Below, piece after piece: positions 2,071 through 55,133 of a stretch of 64,000 nucleotides of DNA. Source of the DNA: Minisyncoccia bacterium (GTDB lineage Bacteria; Patescibacteriota; Minisyncoccia; Phycocordibacterales; DATDWN01); the NCBI GenBank assembly GCA_049297675.1, contig JBAQUS010000004.1, positions 13,188 through 77,187 of the forward strand, in the 5' to 3' direction. The stretch's first letter is position 1; the number at the start of each line of letters is the position of its first letter. The notes under the pieces were generated by a model, which worked only from the letters and a program-made list of their open reading frames with translations, had not been told where the DNA came from and did not search any database. Both the position numbers and the translations under genes were made by a program.

Positions 2071-2098
2071 ATTCCAAAATTCTCAAGAATTTTGGAAT
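2071..2098. promoter_or_regulatory. 13+2+13 inverted repeat (attccaaaattct ca agaattttggaat); putative operator
   Basis: Verified by hand. It shares the 16-nt core aaattctcaagaattt with the repeat at 2471-2508. It overlaps the ArsR stop codon and lies about 100 nt upstream of the 842-1969 gene start. Confidence 0.45.
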
Positions 2099-8960: not shown

Positions 8961-8983
8961 TAGTGGACACCGAGTGTCCACTA
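8961..8983. repeat. Orphan palindrome tagtggacac cga gtgtccacta
   Basis: 10-bp perfect arms with a 3-nt centre. About 50 nt further on is the motif cccctcgcttattcgctta, also seen at 59124-59142. Confidence 0.5.
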
Positions 8984-13435: not shown

Positions 13436-13473
13436 ATACACTTAACTTATGCTATAGCATAAGTTAAGTGTAT
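13436..13473. promoter_or_regulatory. 38-nt perfect palindrome atacacttaacttatgcta|tagcataagttaagtgtat
   Basis: Verified base by base. It lies 26 nt downstream of the PaaX-like stop and is related to the repeat at 14082-14131. Confidence 0.5.
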
Positions 13474-44257: not shown

Positions 44258-44580
44258 TGAGTAACAGAAATCAAAGACTAAGTGAAATTCTAAGAGATTT
44301 AGGTGCCCGTTTTCTGCTTCTTAATGGAAACAAATCCTCGCTTTTAACCGTGACAAAATTGGAATTAACAAGGGATGGAAAAAATGCTACTATTTTCTTT
44401 ACGGTTTTTCCAAATAGTTTTGAAAAAACTGCTCTTGAGTTTGCCAAGAGAAAAAGAAGTGATTTTAGAGAATTCGTTAAGGAAAATTCAAAACTAGGAC
44501 ACCTCCCCCAGTTTGATTTTGAAATTGATCTAGGAGAGAAAAACCGTCAAAAAATTGACGGATTATTAAATGAAAAATGA
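44257..44580 (+). CDS. rbfA: Ribosome-binding factor A
   Basis: RLSEILRDLGARFLLL...LTVTKLELTRDGKNATIFF. The ATGA overlap with infB couples the two genes. The gene ends in TGA. Confidence 0.75.
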   Translation: MSNRNQRLSEILRDLGARFLLLNGNKSSLLTVTKLELTRDGKNATIFFTVFPNSFEKTALEFAKRKRSDFREFVKENSKLGHLPQFDFEIDLGEKNRQKIDGLLNEK

Positions 44581-44650
44581 CCTAGTCGCCAAGTGGTAAG
44601 GCAAAGCTCTGCAAAAGCTTTATACGGCGGTTCGATTCCGCCCTAGGTCT
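44579..44650 (+). tRNA. tRNA-Cys (anticodon GCA)
   Basis: Hand fold: GACCTAG/CTAGGTC acceptor, AAGCT-CTGCAAA-AGCTT anticodon arm, GGCGG-TTCGATT-CCGCC T arm. It starts inside the rbfA stop codon. Confidence 0.85.
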
Positions 44651-44719
44651 CCCTAAAACATTTACACAGTAAGTGTTTGGGTGAACAATTCATCCAGAGA
44701 GTTGTTGTAACCAAATTTT

Positions 44720-44801
44720 GCTCGGGTGGCGGAACTGGTATACGCGTTCGACTTAAAATCGAATCCCGAAAGGGGTATGGGTTCGATTCCCATCCCGAGC
44801 A
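44720..44801 (+). tRNA. tRNA-Leu (anticodon TAA)
   Basis: GCTCGGG/CCCGAGC acceptor, TTCGA-CTTAAAA-TCGAA anticodon arm, long variable arm, ATGGG-TTCGATT-CCCAT T arm. Confidence 0.85.
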
Positions 44802-44850
44802 CAAAATTGAAATAAACTAAAATTAATGTTATAAATTTAAAGTAAAATTT

Positions 44851-44923
44851 GCGCCTATAGCTCAGCTGGTAGAGCAGATCCCTCTTAAGGATAAGGTCCC
44901 AGGTTCGATCCCTGGTGGGCGCA
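44851..44923 (+). tRNA. tRNA-Lys (anticodon CTT)
   Basis: GCGCCTA/TGGGCGC acceptor, GCTC-AGCTGGTA-GAGC D arm, CTCTTAA anticodon loop, CCAGG-TTCGATC-CCTGG T arm. Confidence 0.85.
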
Positions 44924-45119
44924 CAAGCCGAAATAATCTAAACTGCTTTAGATTATTTCGGACTTGTGCGCAACCAGAATATACCTTTAGGTGATTCTGG
45001 TTGAGGTTTCGGGCTTGTGCGTTATTAAAACATGTTTACTAAATAGTTTGAATCGTGGTTTCAAATTTGTGTGTGAAAGTAAGATAGCAATATAATGTTT
45101 TAGTTTCAAGTTAACAATT

Positions 45120-45203
45120 GGGCGAGTGGCGTAACAGTAGCCGCGCCAGTCTTAGGAACTGGTCCCGTAAGGGGTGGAGGTGCGATTCCTCTCTCGCCCA
45201 CCA
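45120..45203 (+). tRNA. tRNA-Leu (anticodon TAG), atypical D and T loops, CCA encoded
   Basis: GGGCGAG/CTCGCCC acceptor, perfect CCAGT-CTTAGGA-ACTGG anticodon arm, long variable arm. The D loop lacks GG, and the T loop is TGCGATT rather than TTCGA.. . Confidence 0.6.
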
Positions 45204-45490: not shown

Positions 45491-46277
45491 CTGTCAAACA
45501 TCCGATGTTTGACAGTAAGTTAGGGGTAGATTATTACCGAAAATGTTAAAACTTTTTATACTTCAAAAGTTTTGGTGTCAGCTTTTACCCCGCTATTTTT
45601 TACAAATTTATAATATTCATATTTATCCTCAAATTGGTCTAATACTACTTCCCTTTTTAATATTTCCTTCCAACGATTTTCTGTAACGTAATCCTGATAG
45701 CTAGACCACTCATATTTTTCTGGATTATTACTCCAATGTGAAAGCTCTTTTGGATTTAAATGAACATACGCAGATAAATGTAGTAGTTGTTCATTACTTT
45801 CAACATGAACTGCTTTATACGGACCTTCAAAAAGATGCCCCGAAATTTTATATTTAGTATTGAAGTATTTTGTATACGAGTTAAGTACACGTTGCATATA
45901 TTTCCCAGTTCCACCTTCTTCATTTTCACGAACTATTAGATGAAAATGGTTAGTCATCATCGCAAAAGAAACTAGGTCAACGTATCTTTTCGAAATTATC
46001 TTTTCGTAATCATCACTGTTAATGTCAAACATCCGATGTTTGACATAATTCGAGATCATTCTTGAAACTTGAGGAAAAATAACATTTGCTTGAAAGTATA
46101 AAATGAGAAATAAAAATCTAATTCTATCTCTATCATCCTTGAAGATGATTTTCTTCCCAACTCCCCGATTATATATATGATAGTGTTCCCCAATTTCAAT
46201 ATTATCTCTTCTCATAACCTCTCATCCTACATGGACAACTATCCATCTGTCAAACATCGGATGTTTGACAGATGGAT
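45491..46277 (-). mobile_element. RAYT/IS200-like unit 1: Y1 gene bracketed by copies of the palindrome tgtcaaacatc-N-gatgtttgaca
   Basis: Palindromes at 45491-45515 (12+c+12), 46022-46046 (inside the CDS) and 46241-46277 (18+g+18). The centre base is complemented in the third copy. Confidence 0.6.
45556..46215 (-). CDS. HUH/Y1 tyrosine transposase-like protein (REP-associated, IS200-like domain)
   Basis: HYHIYNRGVGK, HUH motif TNHFHLIV and the catalytic-Tyr region LSAYVHLNP. Confidence 0.75.
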   Translation of the reverse strand: MRRDNIEIGEHYHIYNRGVGKKIIFKDDRDRIRFLFLILYFQANVIFPQVSRMISNYVKHRMFDINSDDYEKIISKRYVDLVSFAMMTNHFHLIVRENEEGGTGKYMQRVLNSYTKYFNTKYKISGHLFEGPYKAVHVESNEQLLHLSAYVHLNPKELSHWSNNPEKYEWSSYQDYVTENRWKEILKREVVLDQFEDKYEYYKFVKNSGVKADTKTFEV

Positions 46278-46367
46278 AAGATCGATTATTAGAAAGGCTT
46301 GTGATTTTTTTAAAATCGATCTTGTTGCAAATAACGGCTTAATGGTGGGGGTTTTTTGACGACACCC

Positions 46368-46401
46368 TTGACTTGACTTTTGGATTTAATTGTGATAGAA
46401 T
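46368..46401 (+). promoter_or_regulatory. Consensus sigma70-type promoter of the GC-rich cassette
   Basis: TTGACTTGACT (overlapping -35 boxes), then a 17-nt spacer, then TAGAAT (46396-46401) preceded by tgtga. Confidence 0.5.
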
Positions 46402-46499
46402 GGTGAGCAGAACGGGAGCGGCAATTCTTGCCCCTTTCGTCGCTCCTTGACACTCTAGTTTTTAGTTTACAAGCGCTTAAATGCGCAGAAGAGGTTAGC

Positions 46500-48038
46500 A
46501 TGTTTTACACTATCGCAATTTCCGTTCTCGTTGCAGTGACAATCTCGGTCCTGATCGTCGTCGGTTGGCTTATCTTCCGTGTCGTACAGACACGGAGGAG
46601 GACACCAGTCATTCATGATTGGGCGCGGAGGGATGATAGTCGCGAGACGACACCCTCCCCGACTCCTACCACGACATCCGGAATTGATGTCGACCTCACA
46701 CTGAATCCTCCCCGCCATACTCCGAAAGGAAATAGCGGAAGAGAACCCGAACCGTTGCCTCCATGTAAATGGAAAAAAGGCACGTTTCGTATCATCTACT
46801 GGGCGGTAATAATTCCGCTCGGAATGATATCTGTCTTCGTTCTGGAGTGGGGTATCCTATCGGGTCTGCCACTCACGTGGAATACCCTGTTGGAATTCAA
46901 CGCAACTTCAGTTGGGCTGACCCTTGTTGTTCTCTGGGTAGCCTACTTCTTGGACACATTCAAGATCGTCAAGTTCAATGAACTCGGCGGTCGTGTGGTA
47001 CTTGGTAGTTTCGAGTCCTACTCTGACGGGATAACTCTCGCACCGAGATGGATTACCGATCTGGTCAAGGTAACGAGAGCAACTGAAGAACTTGATCAAC
47101 CTCACAGTGACCCGTCAAAAATTTTCTGGGGAGACCTAAGCAAACTTCCAGACGGGAAAATCCCGGACGGTATGGTACTACCAATTCGTGTGCCATTCCT
47201 CCAGAGGTCAAGCGATGAAGACTTCGAAGTTCGCTGGCCACTTGAAACAGGAGAGGTCAAAACCAGAATTACAAAGGGCTATGACCTTCTTAGTGCAACG
47301 GATGCTCCTGTCGAGTATTCGATCGGAATCAGATTCATCGACATCCAACGTGTTATCGTTCGACTCAGGTCACTCAAAGCAGCCTACGACTTGGCAACAG
47401 ACTATGCAGAGACGCTCATAACGGGCACTTTGCAGAAAATGTCCGCTGCCGAAGCCCAAGTACTGAAACAGGAAATTTCAGTACATCTTGAGGAACAGAC
47501 GGACAACCGTGTTTTCCAATCGTACGGCTTCGTGATCGACTTCGTGACTTTGAAGTCAATCGGGACTTCGCACACAATCGCGGAATCGCGAGCGCAGGCG
47601 GCAGCAGCTGTCAACCTTGCGAATAAAACGGTTAGAGACGCAAAAGCTACAGCTAAGGCAACCGAACTTCAAGGTGCTTCTGTGGCTGGAGCTGAATTGG
47701 CACTACTCAACGCGAGGTCAGTAGGACTACGCAACATCGTCGACGCTGCGACTTCACGGTCAGGGGGAGTTGAACTCGCCAAAGCTATGGAAGCGGCACG
47801 CGCTATTCAGTTTGGCGCAGATTCGACAGTTGTTGTCCCAGGTGGAAACACTGGGGACGGTCTCGGACTCTTTGGCGCAGCGGTCGGTACAGCAATTAGT
47901 GCTTCGGCCGCACTTGGGAGAAAACCAGCTGGTGAAAAAGCTCTAACAGAGACCCAACCAGCACAACCAACAACTACTACAACACCCCCTGCACGTGGCG
48001 ACAGACGTGGCCATAAGAAAGGGGGTAAGAGGAGTTAG
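46500..48038 (+). CDS. Multi-TM SPFH/band-7 (prohibitin/HflK-like) domain protein with Ala-rich coiled C-terminus and basic P/T tail
   Basis: Start set at MFYTIAIS (GAGG 5 nt upstream). FKIVKFNELGGRVVLGSF ... YSIGIRFIDIQRVI ... YGFVIDFVTLKSIGTSHTIAESRAQAAAA fits the SPFH pattern. The DNA is GC-rich. Confidence 0.6.
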   Translation: MFYTIAISVLVAVTISVLIVVGWLIFRVVQTRRRTPVIHDWARRDDSRETTPSPTPTTTSGIDVDLTLNPPRHTPKGNSGREPEPLPPCKWKKGTFRIIYWAVIIPLGMISVFVLEWGILSGLPLTWNTLLEFNATSVGLTLVVLWVAYFLDTFKIVKFNELGGRVVLGSFESYSDGITLAPRWITDLVKVTRATEELDQPHSDPSKIFWGDLSKLPDGKIPDGMVLPIRVPFLQRSSDEDFEVRWPLETGEVKTRITKGYDLLSATDAPVEYSIGIRFIDIQRVIVRLRSLKAAYDLATDYAETLITGTLQKMSAAEAQVLKQEISVHLEEQTDNRVFQSYGFVIDFVTLKSIGTSHTIAESRAQAAAAVNLANKTVRDAKATAKATELQGASVAGAELALLNARSVGLRNIVDAATSRSGGVELAKAMEAARAIQFGADSTVVVPGGNTGDGLGLFGAAVGTAISASAALGRKPAGEKALTETQPAQPTTTTTPPARGDRRGHKKGGKRS

Positions 48039-48040
48039 TC

Positions 48041-49396
48041 ATGCCTATCGTCGCAATCGTTATCGTACTCCTCTTTCTCGTCTTCGGACGAAGGAAAGGA
48101 AACGATAGCAAATACATTCGAGAGTCAGAGGTCGTTGATACCAAGCCAAATGGTAAAACAGAGACGGAAAAACACACTCTGTGGTGGCACGTCGGCCACT
48201 ACAAACTCGTGTGGCTACAGCACTGGAGGAGGTCAACAACCCTCCGTGTCTCCGCCGGACTGCTTGCTTTCGGGCTGGGAGTCTGGATCTTCCCTCTAAC
48301 GAGGGAATGGTGGAGTTCGCAGTGGGTTAGCTTCGGCCTTTACCTAATTGCCGCTCTGGCCATTATCTGCCTTGGGTTCATGTTGGGCCCGGCGCAGAAA
48401 GTGCCGTTCGAGTACAGGCTCCGGCCTTTATTGCTCATCATTGGAATTGCGATCGCAGTCTACGGACTCGGTGCGAACACCAAGTTCGGTCAGAGCACCT
48501 GGTCGTGGATCGCCTCTCACTTCGGGAGAACAGATGGAAACATCGGTCTAACTCCAGAGGAGACAGCTGACCTACCGGACGGGTTCGTCGAGAGCGACAA
48601 TCCGAACCACTGGTCAAACCACGTCACCGATGAAAATCGTGATGTGGTCAACATGGTCCGGGCTGCCGTCCAGAGCGAACTTGTCCCAACCCATTGGGAC
48701 CTCGCCATGCAGATCTGCGGTATGGAATCGGCATGGTTTCGTCAGTTCGATGAGGACGGTAATGTTCTCAGAAACGTCAAAAACAATGACGGGTCAATCG
48801 ACTACGGAGTCTGTCAGATCAACTCCATATGGATGAAAAAGTCCAAGGAGTTGGGAGATGGTTTCCGGATCGACGGGCCGGCTGACGAAAACATTCGAAT
48901 GGCCATGTGGATCTGGACGAATCCAGAAACACGTGGGCCACGCGAGTGGACCGGTACGTACAACACAGCTCTTGCTGTTGTCCGCAATGCGCGGACAACG
49001 CCAGAGACTGTGAACGCACGTCGAACTCCAGAGAGGTCACCGGCTGAACAGGAGACTGTTCAGGCTGGGATCGCACTGGTCTCACAAACTGAGCCAATTC
49101 ACCAGCAACGCAACCCACAAAGAGAGGTGTCTGTCACAGCCATGTTTCCAGGATGGGTCACCGACAAGTCCTCCATGACCTGCGACCTCGAAGAGGACGC
49201 AGAAATCGAGGCGGTCGGTGAGCCTGGAATATTTTACTGGAGTGACACAAACTTCAGTACGAACATCCTAAAGCCTGGAGAAACTGCTTCACTTGCTGGA
49301 TTCAAATGCGTTGCAGTCAGATACTTTTCCCCAACGTTTGGGGGAAAACTGACTGAGGGTCAGAGCCCTTACGCAATCGTGAGACGATACAAATAA
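48041..49396 (+). CDS. Membrane-anchored lytic transglycosylase (SLT domain) with a C-terminal domain of unknown function
   Basis: Four to five N-terminal TMs. ICGMESAWFRQFDEDGNV ... DYGVCQINSIW contains the SLT catalytic E-S and the Q-I-N motif. AGAGGAG SD. The ATG lies 2 nt after the upstream stop. Confidence 0.7.
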   Translation: MPIVAIVIVLLFLVFGRRKGNDSKYIRESEVVDTKPNGKTETEKHTLWWHVGHYKLVWLQHWRRSTTLRVSAGLLAFGLGVWIFPLTREWWSSQWVSFGLYLIAALAIICLGFMLGPAQKVPFEYRLRPLLLIIGIAIAVYGLGANTKFGQSTWSWIASHFGRTDGNIGLTPEETADLPDGFVESDNPNHWSNHVTDENRDVVNMVRAAVQSELVPTHWDLAMQICGMESAWFRQFDEDGNVLRNVKNNDGSIDYGVCQINSIWMKKSKELGDGFRIDGPADENIRMAMWIWTNPETRGPREWTGTYNTALAVVRNARTTPETVNARRTPERSPAEQETVQAGIALVSQTEPIHQQRNPQREVSVTAMFPGWVTDKSSMTCDLEEDAEIEAVGEPGIFYWSDTNFSTNILKPGETASLAGFKCVAVRYFSPTFGGKLTEGQSPYAIVRRYK

Positions 49397-49430
49397 ACTA
49401 GAGTTAGAGAGGAGTACACATGTTCGCATG

Positions 49431-49466
49431 AGGCCGTTACCCGATAAGGGAACGGCCTCTTTTTAT
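49431..49466 (+). terminator. Rho-independent terminator of the GC-rich cassette
   Basis: aggccgtt...aacggcct stem followed by ctttttat. Confidence 0.6.
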
Positions 49467-49492
49467 GCATGATGATATATAAAATTTCTCTA

Positions 49493-49525
49493 CAGAAAAC
49501 CGCTCAAGTTGTGAGCGGTTTTCTG
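49493..49525. terminator. Bidirectional 14-bp hairpin cagaaaaccgctca-agttg-tgagcggttttctg
   Basis: Perfect arms, verified. It lies between the convergent cassette and the pilin operon. Confidence 0.6.
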
Positions 49526-54168: not shown

Positions 54169-54341
54169 TGGCTAGTTATGAAGTTGAAAGTAAAAAGTTA
54201 GAAGTAATACAAACAGTATACTAACAAAATTACGTGCTATTTATTATACAACCAAAAAACCAAATCAACACTATAGTTGTTCACAAATTAGAGTTTAAAT
54301 TTTGTTAATTTTATATAAGGACTCAATATAAAAAACCTGTT

Positions 54342-55076
54342 TTACTAGGGTAACCCTAGTAATTACTAGTAACTATCTTTATATTCTAACCAATCAGTTA
54401 TATTATCATTAAAATCAAAGATACTTGAAAAATACTCAGGGAAATTAGTTTTGTCTAAAATCATACCCGCTTCCCTCTTTTGTCCGACATAATCTAAATA
54501 ACTAGAACAATCATAATTCGATAGAAATTTTTTAGCTTTACTAATGTTTTTTATTCCAGATTCTTTCCAGTCATATTCAATTAATTTAACTGGATTAAGA
54601 TGAATGTAAGAAAATAAATATTTCAAATATTCATCAGAGTCAGCATGTTCTGCTTTATATGTACCCTGAAACAACGAACCCACTCTATCATTTAATTTAT
54701 TAAAGTAGGTAGAATAGCCCGTAGTCAATTTTTCCATAAACATAGCTGTACCGCCCTCAACAATTTCTCTAACAAGAATATGAAAATGATTTGGCATTAA
54801 AACCCATGCTCCTATTGCAACGAGTTGCTCGCCCCTGTTAATATCTTTCAATGGTAAGTCTATTGTTGTGCTGTACCTATAAGGAAGAGTATTGTTTGCA
54901 AGATATAAGAGTCTAATAAATCTCTTATAATCATTCTGTGAAATAAAAATATCGCGCTTTTCAACTCCTCGATTATATATATGGTAAAACTCGCCTTCAG
55001 ATATGACTATTTTTCTTTGCATAGAAGCACTATATACTAACAACTCTCATCTTACTAGGGTAACCCTAGTAAGATG
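54342..55076 (-). mobile_element. RAYT/IS200-like unit 2: Y1 gene bracketed by the palindrome ttactagggt-a-accctagtaa
   Basis: 21-nt copy at 54342-54362 and an extended 29-nt copy (catcttactagggt a accctagtaagatg) at 55048-55076. Confidence 0.6.
54366..55022 (-). CDS. HUH/Y1 tyrosine transposase-like protein (second, divergent paralogue)
   Basis: FYHIYNRGVEK, HUH motif PNHFHILV and Tyr region LFSYIHLNP. Start moved to MQRKIVIS by analogy with paralogue 1. Confidence 0.75.
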   Translation of the reverse strand: MQRKIVISEGEFYHIYNRGVEKRDIFISQNDYKRFIRLLYLANNTLPYRYSTTIDLPLKDINRGEQLVAIGAWVLMPNHFHILVREIVEGGTAMFMEKLTTGYSTYFNKLNDRVGSLFQGTYKAEHADSDEYLKYLFSYIHLNPVKLIEYDWKESGIKNISKAKKFLSNYDCSSYLDYVGQKREAGMILDKTNFPEYFSSIFDFNDNITDWLEYKDSY

Positions 55077-55133
55077 AAATTTTGATACCATGAAGCCCTG
55101 AGACTTCATGGTCCCAGGGCTGTTACCTGCTTT

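Follow-up and report, generated by a model that had tools for sequence, protein, structure and literature searches.

Why does a gene for a putative DNA-processing enzyme carry, in its own reading frame, a third copy of the palindrome that brackets it? The question is posed by a 64,000-nucleotide stretch (hereafter the window) of a Minisyncoccia bacterium, a member of the candidate phyla radiation (CPR) or Patescibacteria (assembly GCA_049297675.1, contig JBAQUS010000004.1, positions 13,188 to 77,187). The gene resembles those of the REP-associated tyrosine transposases (RAYTs; REP, repetitive extragenic palindrome), whose catalytic domain is of the Y1/HUH class. We found that the hairpin copies at this gene are actively maintained at the DNA level across its relatives, and that the in-gene copy is itself under DNA-level constraint, evolving in concert with the flanking copies. 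The explanation we favour, with a probability of about 0.6 taken as a whole, is that a RAYT-class Y1/HUH gene maintains three copies of its own REP-like palindrome family, the encoded enzyme being a single-strand DNA nuclease of that class, the palindromes its sites, and control of the gene in cis their possible purpose.

Three palindrome copies at a Y1 gene

The features of the locus, numbered from the first letter of the window, are:

45556..46215, minus strand: Y1/HUH (RAYT-like) nuclease gene, an open reading frame (ORF) of 219 aa; HUH motif at nt 45940-45948, codon of the catalytic Tyr150 at 45766-45768
45491..45515, no strand: downstream hairpin, CTGTCAAACATC-C-GATGTTTGACAG, 40 nt 3′ of the stop at 45556
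46022..46046, no strand: in-gene hairpin, ATGTCAAACATC-C-GATGTTTGACAT, in frame within the coding sequence
46241..46277, no strand: upstream hairpin, an 18+1+18 palindrome with centre G, core at 46248-46270, 25 nt before the ATG at 46215
46224..46253, minus strand: promoter-like site, TTGACA (46253-46248), 18-nt spacer, TAGGAT (46229-46224), 8 nt to the ATG

The three palindromes had been located by the original prediction, whose coordinates proved exact on recheck. With up to 3 mismatches allowed, the 23-nt core TGTCAAACATC-N-GATGTTTGACA (S at the centre in the window copies) occurs at 3 sites in the 64 kb window, all within less than 800 bp, and 100 shuffles gave 0 matches. On the coding (minus) strand the in-gene copy reads TAT GTC AAA CAT CGG ATG TTT GAC ATT, encoding Y-V-K-H-R-M-F-D-I (residues 57-65); the hairpin takes up the whole of codons 58-64, together with the final two bases of codon 57 and the initial two of codon 65. 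Folded as single-stranded DNA, the three hairpins have energies of -18.2, -9.3 and -10.4 kcal/mol (z = -9.6, -4.4 and -6.3), and all fold equally on both strands. Directly upstream of the upstream hairpin lies a 10-bp inverted repeat with a 25-nt spacer, AAGATCGATT ... AATCGATCTT (46278-46322).

The HUH (HFH) and Y-x-H-x-N-P motifs described earlier are present in the ORF, at codons 90-92 and starting at Y150, and H90, H92, Y150 and N154 are invariant in 32 homologues. The profile search that had been proposed as a check was passed, Pfam Y1_Tnp (PF01797) scoring 30.1 bits against a cut-off of 23 (E = 5.7e-7); the Pfam search detected no helix-turn-helix or other duplex-binding domain in the enzyme. 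The AlphaFold (AF2) model has a predicted local distance difference test (pLDDT) score of 79 and places Y150 in helix 141-153. Its best Foldseek match is 4er8_A, the Escherichia coli TnpA-REP (RAYT) with REP hairpin (E = 6e-5, target-normalised TM-score 0.66), with further matches to the TnpA proteins of IS608 and ISDra2; 4er8, 2a6m, 2xm3 and 2vjv all have probability 1.00. The enzyme is of the Y1/HUH class, with a predicted fold like that of a RAYT. An identical protein is named as from a metagenome-assembled genome of Minisyncoccia (CPR), and the homologues (more than 1,256, all of ~220 aa) are from Patescibacteria/CPR where a source is named. In an exhaustive search, 17,763 cluster representatives scored E <= 1e-3, and 116 of them reached E <= 1e-30.

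Conservation of the in-gene copy

The comparison set comprised 80 loci from GTDB species representatives, with residue 58 mapped in each, and 82 homologous CPR genes; a palindrome was counted as kept where at least 8 of 10 Watson-Crick pairs were found at the same codons. By this measure the in-gene palindrome is kept in 63 of the 82 genes, a threshold that other windows of the same genes reach in 0.1% of cases. Both flanking hairpins are present in 60/82 genes and all three copies in 51/82. An independent palindrome scan found an upstream hairpin of the same family in about 70 of the 82 genes, its centre at a median of 39 nt before the ATG, and most relatives have a downstream hairpin centred a median of 17 nt after the stop. 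In a few relatives (L004, L006 and the proteins P0006, P0007 and P0022) the downstream hairpin, in another frame, supplies the last six codons and the stop of the gene (…CQTSGV-TGA).

An alignment of orthologues around KHRMFD, called for by the original prediction, shows the region conserved at the same codons, and conserved as a DNA palindrome. At the protein level a motif F-VKHRVFD-I is conserved in the homologue alignment. The palindrome sequence varies between lineages and is alike within one locus, and substitutions among the encoded residues come in stem-preserving pairs: V(GTC)-D(GAC), V(GTT)-N(AAC), I(ATT)-N(AAT) or I(ATC)-D(GAT) at the first position; K(AAA)-F(TTT), E(GAA)-F(TTC) or Q(CAA)-L(TTG) at the second; and H(CAC)-V(GTG), H(CAT)-M(ATG), S(AGC)-A(GCT) or T(ACT)-S(AGT) at the third. 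Wholly different in-gene peptides such as VQSSTLH also occur. The centre codon is CGA/CGG (Arg), TCG (Ser) or CCG (Pro), which is one loop in either orientation. In an 81-sequence alignment (A2), 84.6% of stem cells are paired, compared with 31-49% when the partners are slid; compensated cells number 86 against 29 +/- 4 in shuffles, none of 500 of which reached 86, and both-sided changes occur in 10 of the 11 stem pairs. No window of the gene has a higher synonymous-codon identity than codons 57-64, with 0.72 compared with a mean of 0.49.

The copies within a locus resemble one another far more than they resemble those of other loci. Per 20 stem nt, the in-gene copy differs from its own upstream copy by 2.5 mismatches (5.8 for other loci) and from its own downstream copy by 2.9 (6.2 for other loci), and the two flanking copies differ from each other by 1.8 (6.4 for other loci); 0 of 10,000 permutations match this likeness. 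The family consensus is TGT-NNN-ACAY-[YCG/CGR]-RTGT-NNN-ACA, with the ends and the loop-proximal part fixed and the middle NNN of each arm free to vary yet still paired. Since the varying NNN stays paired, intrastrand pairing is favoured over a fixed duplex operator. The orientation of the loop at the three positions is free, all eight combinations being about equally frequent, and it flips between syntenic orthologues. For the most part the peptide VKHRMFD passively reads out the hairpin, with some protein constraint left on H60 and F63: both residues are at least 90% conserved, and the in-gene copy keeps TTT where the flanking hairpins carry TCT, leaving a G.T wobble.

Had the internal motif been conserved in homologues without flanking hairpins, the original prediction would have taken it for coincidence. 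The homologues do conserve the motif, yet they possess flanking hairpins as well, and because these co-vary with the internal copy a chance palindrome in a protein motif is ruled out, as it is by the concerted evolution and the synonymous constraint. A recent nested insertion is ruled out as well, the homologues all being ~220 aa long with the site at the same codons. The suggestion that the site is the scar of a nested insertion stands only in an ancient sense. Residues 55-62 have a pLDDT below 50, the lowest-confidence stretch in the N-terminal half of the model; a second paralogue in the window lacks 11 residues in the hairpin region, and ~27-35 residues, equivalent to 44-76 of the window protein, are absent from several relatives (35-39% identity). 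Because the paralogue and the distant relatives lack the region, the hairpin is placed in a clade-specific insert of ~30 aa, probably a disordered surface loop, which separates helix 1 from strand 2 in the Y1 fold. Such a site is no decaying scar, being actively maintained.

A more distant Y1 subfamily (37% identity) carries unrelated hairpins of its own, for example ACTTGGCGC-TTCGG-GCGCCAAGT. These lie in frame at about +180-210 and, in two of three genes examined (L002:340-1035 and L052), again at about +450, encoding peptides such as NHQLGASGAKLVE and QLGARSAKL; the L039 and L052 paralogues are on the minus strand. Flank copies were found upstream in L002 and downstream in L039, and none was found beside L052. 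The low-confidence loops of the window protein, 55-62 and 155-162, roughly match the hairpin positions of this subfamily. Palindrome-compatible 7-mers occur in the loop window of 29% of 129 cluster representatives versus 8% of shuffles, a weak test; as a protein-only means of detection such 7-mers proved too unspecific alone, 53% of shuffled sequences scoring somewhere, and they are of use only as an enrichment by position.

Promoter, inheritance and dispersed copies

The upstream copy overlaps a promoter-like site. The site in the window matches the consensus at 10/12 positions, the best in the region, and its -35 box sits in the gene-proximal arm of the upstream hairpin. Among relatives, 36 of 70 upstream hairpins match at 10/12 or better with the -35 box within a hairpin arm, at a spacing of 16-18 nt to a TATAAT-like box, and in 41/51 cases the -10 box ends 6-10 nt (mode 6) before the ATG. 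The same test was positive in just 1/73 in-gene and 2/70 downstream hairpins, figures that leave an internal promoter from the -35-like arm of those copies unsupported. With the -35 box inside it, the upstream copy would therefore be untranscribed DNA and the mRNA leaderless or nearly so, which argues against a purely RNA-level role.

The gene appears from its surroundings to be largely vertically inherited. Many pairs of loci (L061/L064, L005/L007, L012/L014/L016, L027/L032/L041) have 5-10 flanking genes in common, and their Y1 proteins are as similar as the neighbouring ones or more so; other pairs, at 80-83% Y1 identity, have no neighbouring genes in common. Several genomes hold two paralogues, 38-56% identical within a genome and with different hairpins, and no identical multi-copy elements of the whole unit were seen among the loci compared. 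The window is such a case: its second Y1/RAYT-like paralogue (54366-55022, minus strand) is 38% identical to the first and has an unrelated palindrome of its own, CTTACTAGGGT-W-ACCCTAGTAAG, abutting the stop at 54341-54363 and again upstream at 55047-55077, with a TATAGT box 6 nt before the ATG. No internal copy of that palindrome was found in it at up to 3 mismatches. A protein identical to the window enzyme was found in two places that turned out to be one genomic context, which is uninformative as to mobility of the unit. At L013:5722-8051 the entire Y1 unit, hairpins included, recurs head to tail every 1,136 nt as far as the contig end; the array may be genuine or an artefact of assembly, and it was left out of account.

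A G+C-rich island (46400-49500; 51-53% against ~36% elsewhere) begins directly upstream of the Y1 gene and contains ORFs of 536 and ~455 aa, the corresponding gene calls in L081 (512 and 451 aa) being without recorded Pfam match. Four tRNA genes (Cys, Leu, Lys, Leu; 44579-45203) lie directly downstream, and the region may be an integration hot spot. Two long perfect palindromes of the window are unrelated to the present finding, at 13436-13473 (19-bp stem, no loop) and at 44928-44961 (15-bp stem, between tRNA-Lys and tRNA-Leu).

Hairpins of the family also occur away from Y1 genes. There are 25 such orphans in 801 kb of related loci, about 1 per 32 kb. The exact window 23-mer is found at 26 metagenome loci, 9 with the gene in the usual layout and 17 solitary, in the sense that no Y1 gene lies within the retrieved DNA. 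Orphans stand in frame in genes with strong Pfam matches, namely UvrC, TsaD, TGT, MnmA, YceG, transketolase (a doublet) and KsgA, and one lies within a surface-protein gene. The copies in UvrC, TsaD, TGT, MnmA and YceG encode VKH(R/P)MFD; those in KsgA and transketolase are in other frames. One surface loop of TGT holds at least three different palindromic elements according to lineage (L095, L111:3338-3389 and L109; alignment A3, columns 120-155), one of them a hairpin doublet with opposite loops (IKHSVFN...VQHRVFN), and appears to be an insertion hot spot. Another of these elements, different from the window-type hairpin, is a clean in-frame indel of 51 nt between syntenic loci (L109:389-439 versus L110). 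Two intergenic palindromes of the window (2071-2098 and 2471-2508) have the common core AATTCTCAAGAATT, and the reverse complement ATTCTTGAGAAT of its 12-nt centre ATTCTCAAGAAT lies inside that indel; related peptides (SHILENVGM and similar) are seen in other TGTs. For the exact window-type hairpin no clean presence/absence case was obtained in TGT or TsaD, where the loops are hypervariable or the element old.

The centre of the TsaD copy varies among R, P and Q in orthologues 87-90% identical to the query, and at ~75-80% identity most orthologues no longer encode the palindrome there; the element is old. The in-gene copy of the Y1 gene is still intact at 47-55% protein identity. That the TsaD copy has mostly decayed at ~75-80% identity and the Y1 copy remains at about 50% speaks for active maintenance of the latter.

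A separate insert of ~17 aa (…LPADATRQALQAGTL…) in just the three closest TsaD proteins (L087 and two relatives; alignment A5, columns 128-146) may be another intragenic repeat. Orphans starting with ATG coincide with an ORF start at L035:1380 and L048:8058, the former encoding MLKARFLT followed by a signal-peptide-like stretch, and the element may donate start codons. In the window itself an intergenic orphan at 8961-8983, TAGTGGACAC-CGA-GTGTCCACTA, belongs to the same superfamily and is of the subtype seen flanking Y1 genes in L052 and L065. The window contains no cognate gene for it, a hint that the genome may have a third system outside the window.

Readings of the locus and their meaning

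How would a RAYT-class enzyme use these sites? In the explanation we favour, the three hairpin copies would be binding or processing sites of the encoded enzyme, presented as hairpins or a cruciform that could be extruded from either strand once the duplex is opened. Between them, the copy at the promoter and the one inside the gene could enable the enzyme to sense its gene in cis and to throttle it, and the loop flips and paired changes might come from palindrome-templated repair or conversion. Of the options offered earlier, a putative regulatory or self-targeting site is the better reading, and autoregulation is our best guess for the role of the in-gene copy. More specifically, the in-gene hairpin might serve functionally in self-recognition, with the enzyme binding the promoter and ORF copies to set its level or to protect or renew the locus; this proposal we regard as unlikely.

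Several observations weigh against this explanation. The curated NCBIfam RAYT model NF047646 reaches 27.8 bits against a cut-off of 80. There is no further copy of the core in the 64 kb window beyond the three at the gene (up to 3 mismatches), a low copy number, and the second paralogue of the window is without an in-gene copy. In 9/82 genes the in-gene site has decayed despite perfect flanking hairpins, so that the copy is dispensable. Loop orientation, not being fixed, gives no strand-specific mechanism, and no guide or cleavage tetranucleotide such as GTAG was found beside the hairpins, where there is only a weak A/T richness (69 upstream and 67 downstream flanks). Template-switch 'correction' of quasi-palindromes could yield paired changes without selection on each pair. 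The pairing of enzyme with hairpin we infer, and autoregulation purely so.

The main rival, itself doubtful, takes the in-gene copy for a selfish passenger: an old REP-like insertion in a tolerant loop, functionless, and kept by template switching and short-patch conversion from copies 200-500 bp away. The same element does sit in loops of unrelated housekeeping genes, the peptide it encodes here falls in a low-confidence loop, its loss in those 9 genes left the flanking hairpins in place, and loops flip in place between orthologues that are syntenic or 87-90% identical. A passenger would fit less easily with a copy that has stayed at the same codons over a span of 47-70% protein identity and has the strongest synonymous constraint of its gene, with a TsaD orphan that is largely non-palindromic by ~75-80% identity, or with a second subfamily that has in-gene copies of an unrelated hairpin sequence. 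Other readings fit less well than either of these. That the unit from upstream to downstream hairpin is an autonomous IS200-like insertion sequence, with the hairpins as its ends and the in-gene copy as a third transposase site (an alternative end or control), is quite unlikely: the hairpins do stand at fixed short distances from both ends of a gene for a Y1 transposase fold, several genomes including that of the window hold two paralogues, and some pairs at 80-83% Y1 identity have no common neighbours, but no identical multi-copy elements were seen, the paralogues are only 38-56% identical with different hairpins, synteny holds over long range and Y1 is no less conserved than the genes around it, solitary hairpins turn up in places without the gene, and the supposed ends are symmetric perfect palindromes with random loop orientation.

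We consider it very unlikely that the palindromes are duplex operators of a dimeric DNA-binding protein (the C-terminal part of the Y1 protein or another factor) that would repress the promoter by looping the -35 region to the ORF site. Symmetric, orientation-free sites, one overlapping the -35 box and one ~220 bp downstream of it in the gene, would suit such an arrangement; against it, the lineage-variable positions co-vary between arms, for which a hairpin is the simpler explanation, unrelated genes harbour orphans, the substrate bound by known Y1 enzymes is a single-stranded hairpin (4er8, 2vjv, 2xm3), and the enzyme has no detected duplex-binding domain, helix-turn-helix or other. Most improbable of all is that the hairpins act as RNA structures, controlling the stability, termination or translation of the mRNA. 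Transcription does cover the in-gene copy, the downstream copy lies where REPs are known to stabilise mRNA 3′ ends, and on the sense strand G.T mismatches slightly exceed A.C (26 versus 15), a bias that is weak and confounded by coding. Against these stand the -35 box that places the upstream copy ahead of the transcript, the random loop orientation, the lack of any U-tract or terminator-like site at the window gene, and the lack of any Rfam family match.

Among known systems the closest is the RAYT/TnpA-REP 'REPtron' (E. coli YafM, PDB 4er8). It has in common with the CPR system the Y1/HUH fold, being the best structural match, a gene bracketed by cognate-type hairpins, each paralogue having a type of its own, further hairpins scattered singly or as doublets, and mostly one copy per type in conserved synteny, this last point being mixed by the ~80% pairs without common neighbours. 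The CPR system differs in that the window protein falls under the curated RAYT cut-off; that the hairpins of the window are AT-rich perfect palindromes without a GTAG or CGTC tag and of low copy number; that the hairpin supplies a promoter -35 box; and that a conserved copy lies within the enzyme's own ORF. A conserved REP within its own RAYT gene, or REPs in CPR bacteria, were not found in the literature searched: a REP within a RAYT gene is not mentioned in PMC3733652, nor do 'within the gene', 'coding sequence' or 'internal' occur in PMC6006769. Intragenic REPs and the Rickettsia palindromic elements (RPE) lie in frame in housekeeping genes, often for repair or tRNA modification, and may supply stop codons (PMC3733652; PMC10969869). 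The CPR palindrome resembles them in its in-frame copies in UvrC, TsaD, TGT, MnmA, YceG, transketolase and KsgA; unlike them it is just 23-37 nt long and has an identifiable cognate Y1 gene, of which one copy is a conserved, co-evolving feature.

The TnpA of IS200/IS605 belongs to the same enzyme superfamily and likewise has hairpins beside both gene ends. In IS200 the left-end hairpin overlaps expression signals. The window protein is ~70 aa longer, however, and the ends of its gene are symmetric and identical whereas those of IS200/IS605 are strand-specific, imperfect and non-identical; nor is there any sign of the window-type unit proliferating among the loci compared. The synteny and the divergence of paralogues within a genome follow the pattern of RAYTs, and not that of insertion sequences. 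Auxiliary operators in coding DNA are also familiar, lacO2 in lacZ and galOI in galE serving looping between lac O1/O2 and gal OE/OI as duplex sites for dedicated repressors. The CPR gene resembles these in pairing an ORF site with a promoter site; its in-gene site forces covariation of the encoded amino acids across the family, which those operators do not.

We read the locus as a new RAYT/REP-like system. It brings such systems into the CPR bacteria and adds a class of hairpin that is new and untagged, in small genomes that have little intergenic space and house such repeats in reading frames. It provides a natural case in which DNA structure, and not protein function, fixes a 'conserved protein motif' across ~100 clusters at 50% identity, a caution for motif-based annotation, and a compact, testable system in which to study by what means a domesticated HUH nuclease might recognise and control the gene that encodes it. 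Under self-recognition, target and protein segment would change together automatically, since the nucleotides of the target also encode a surface loop of the protein; if that loop touches the hairpin, specificity and substrate would have a built-in co-evolution.

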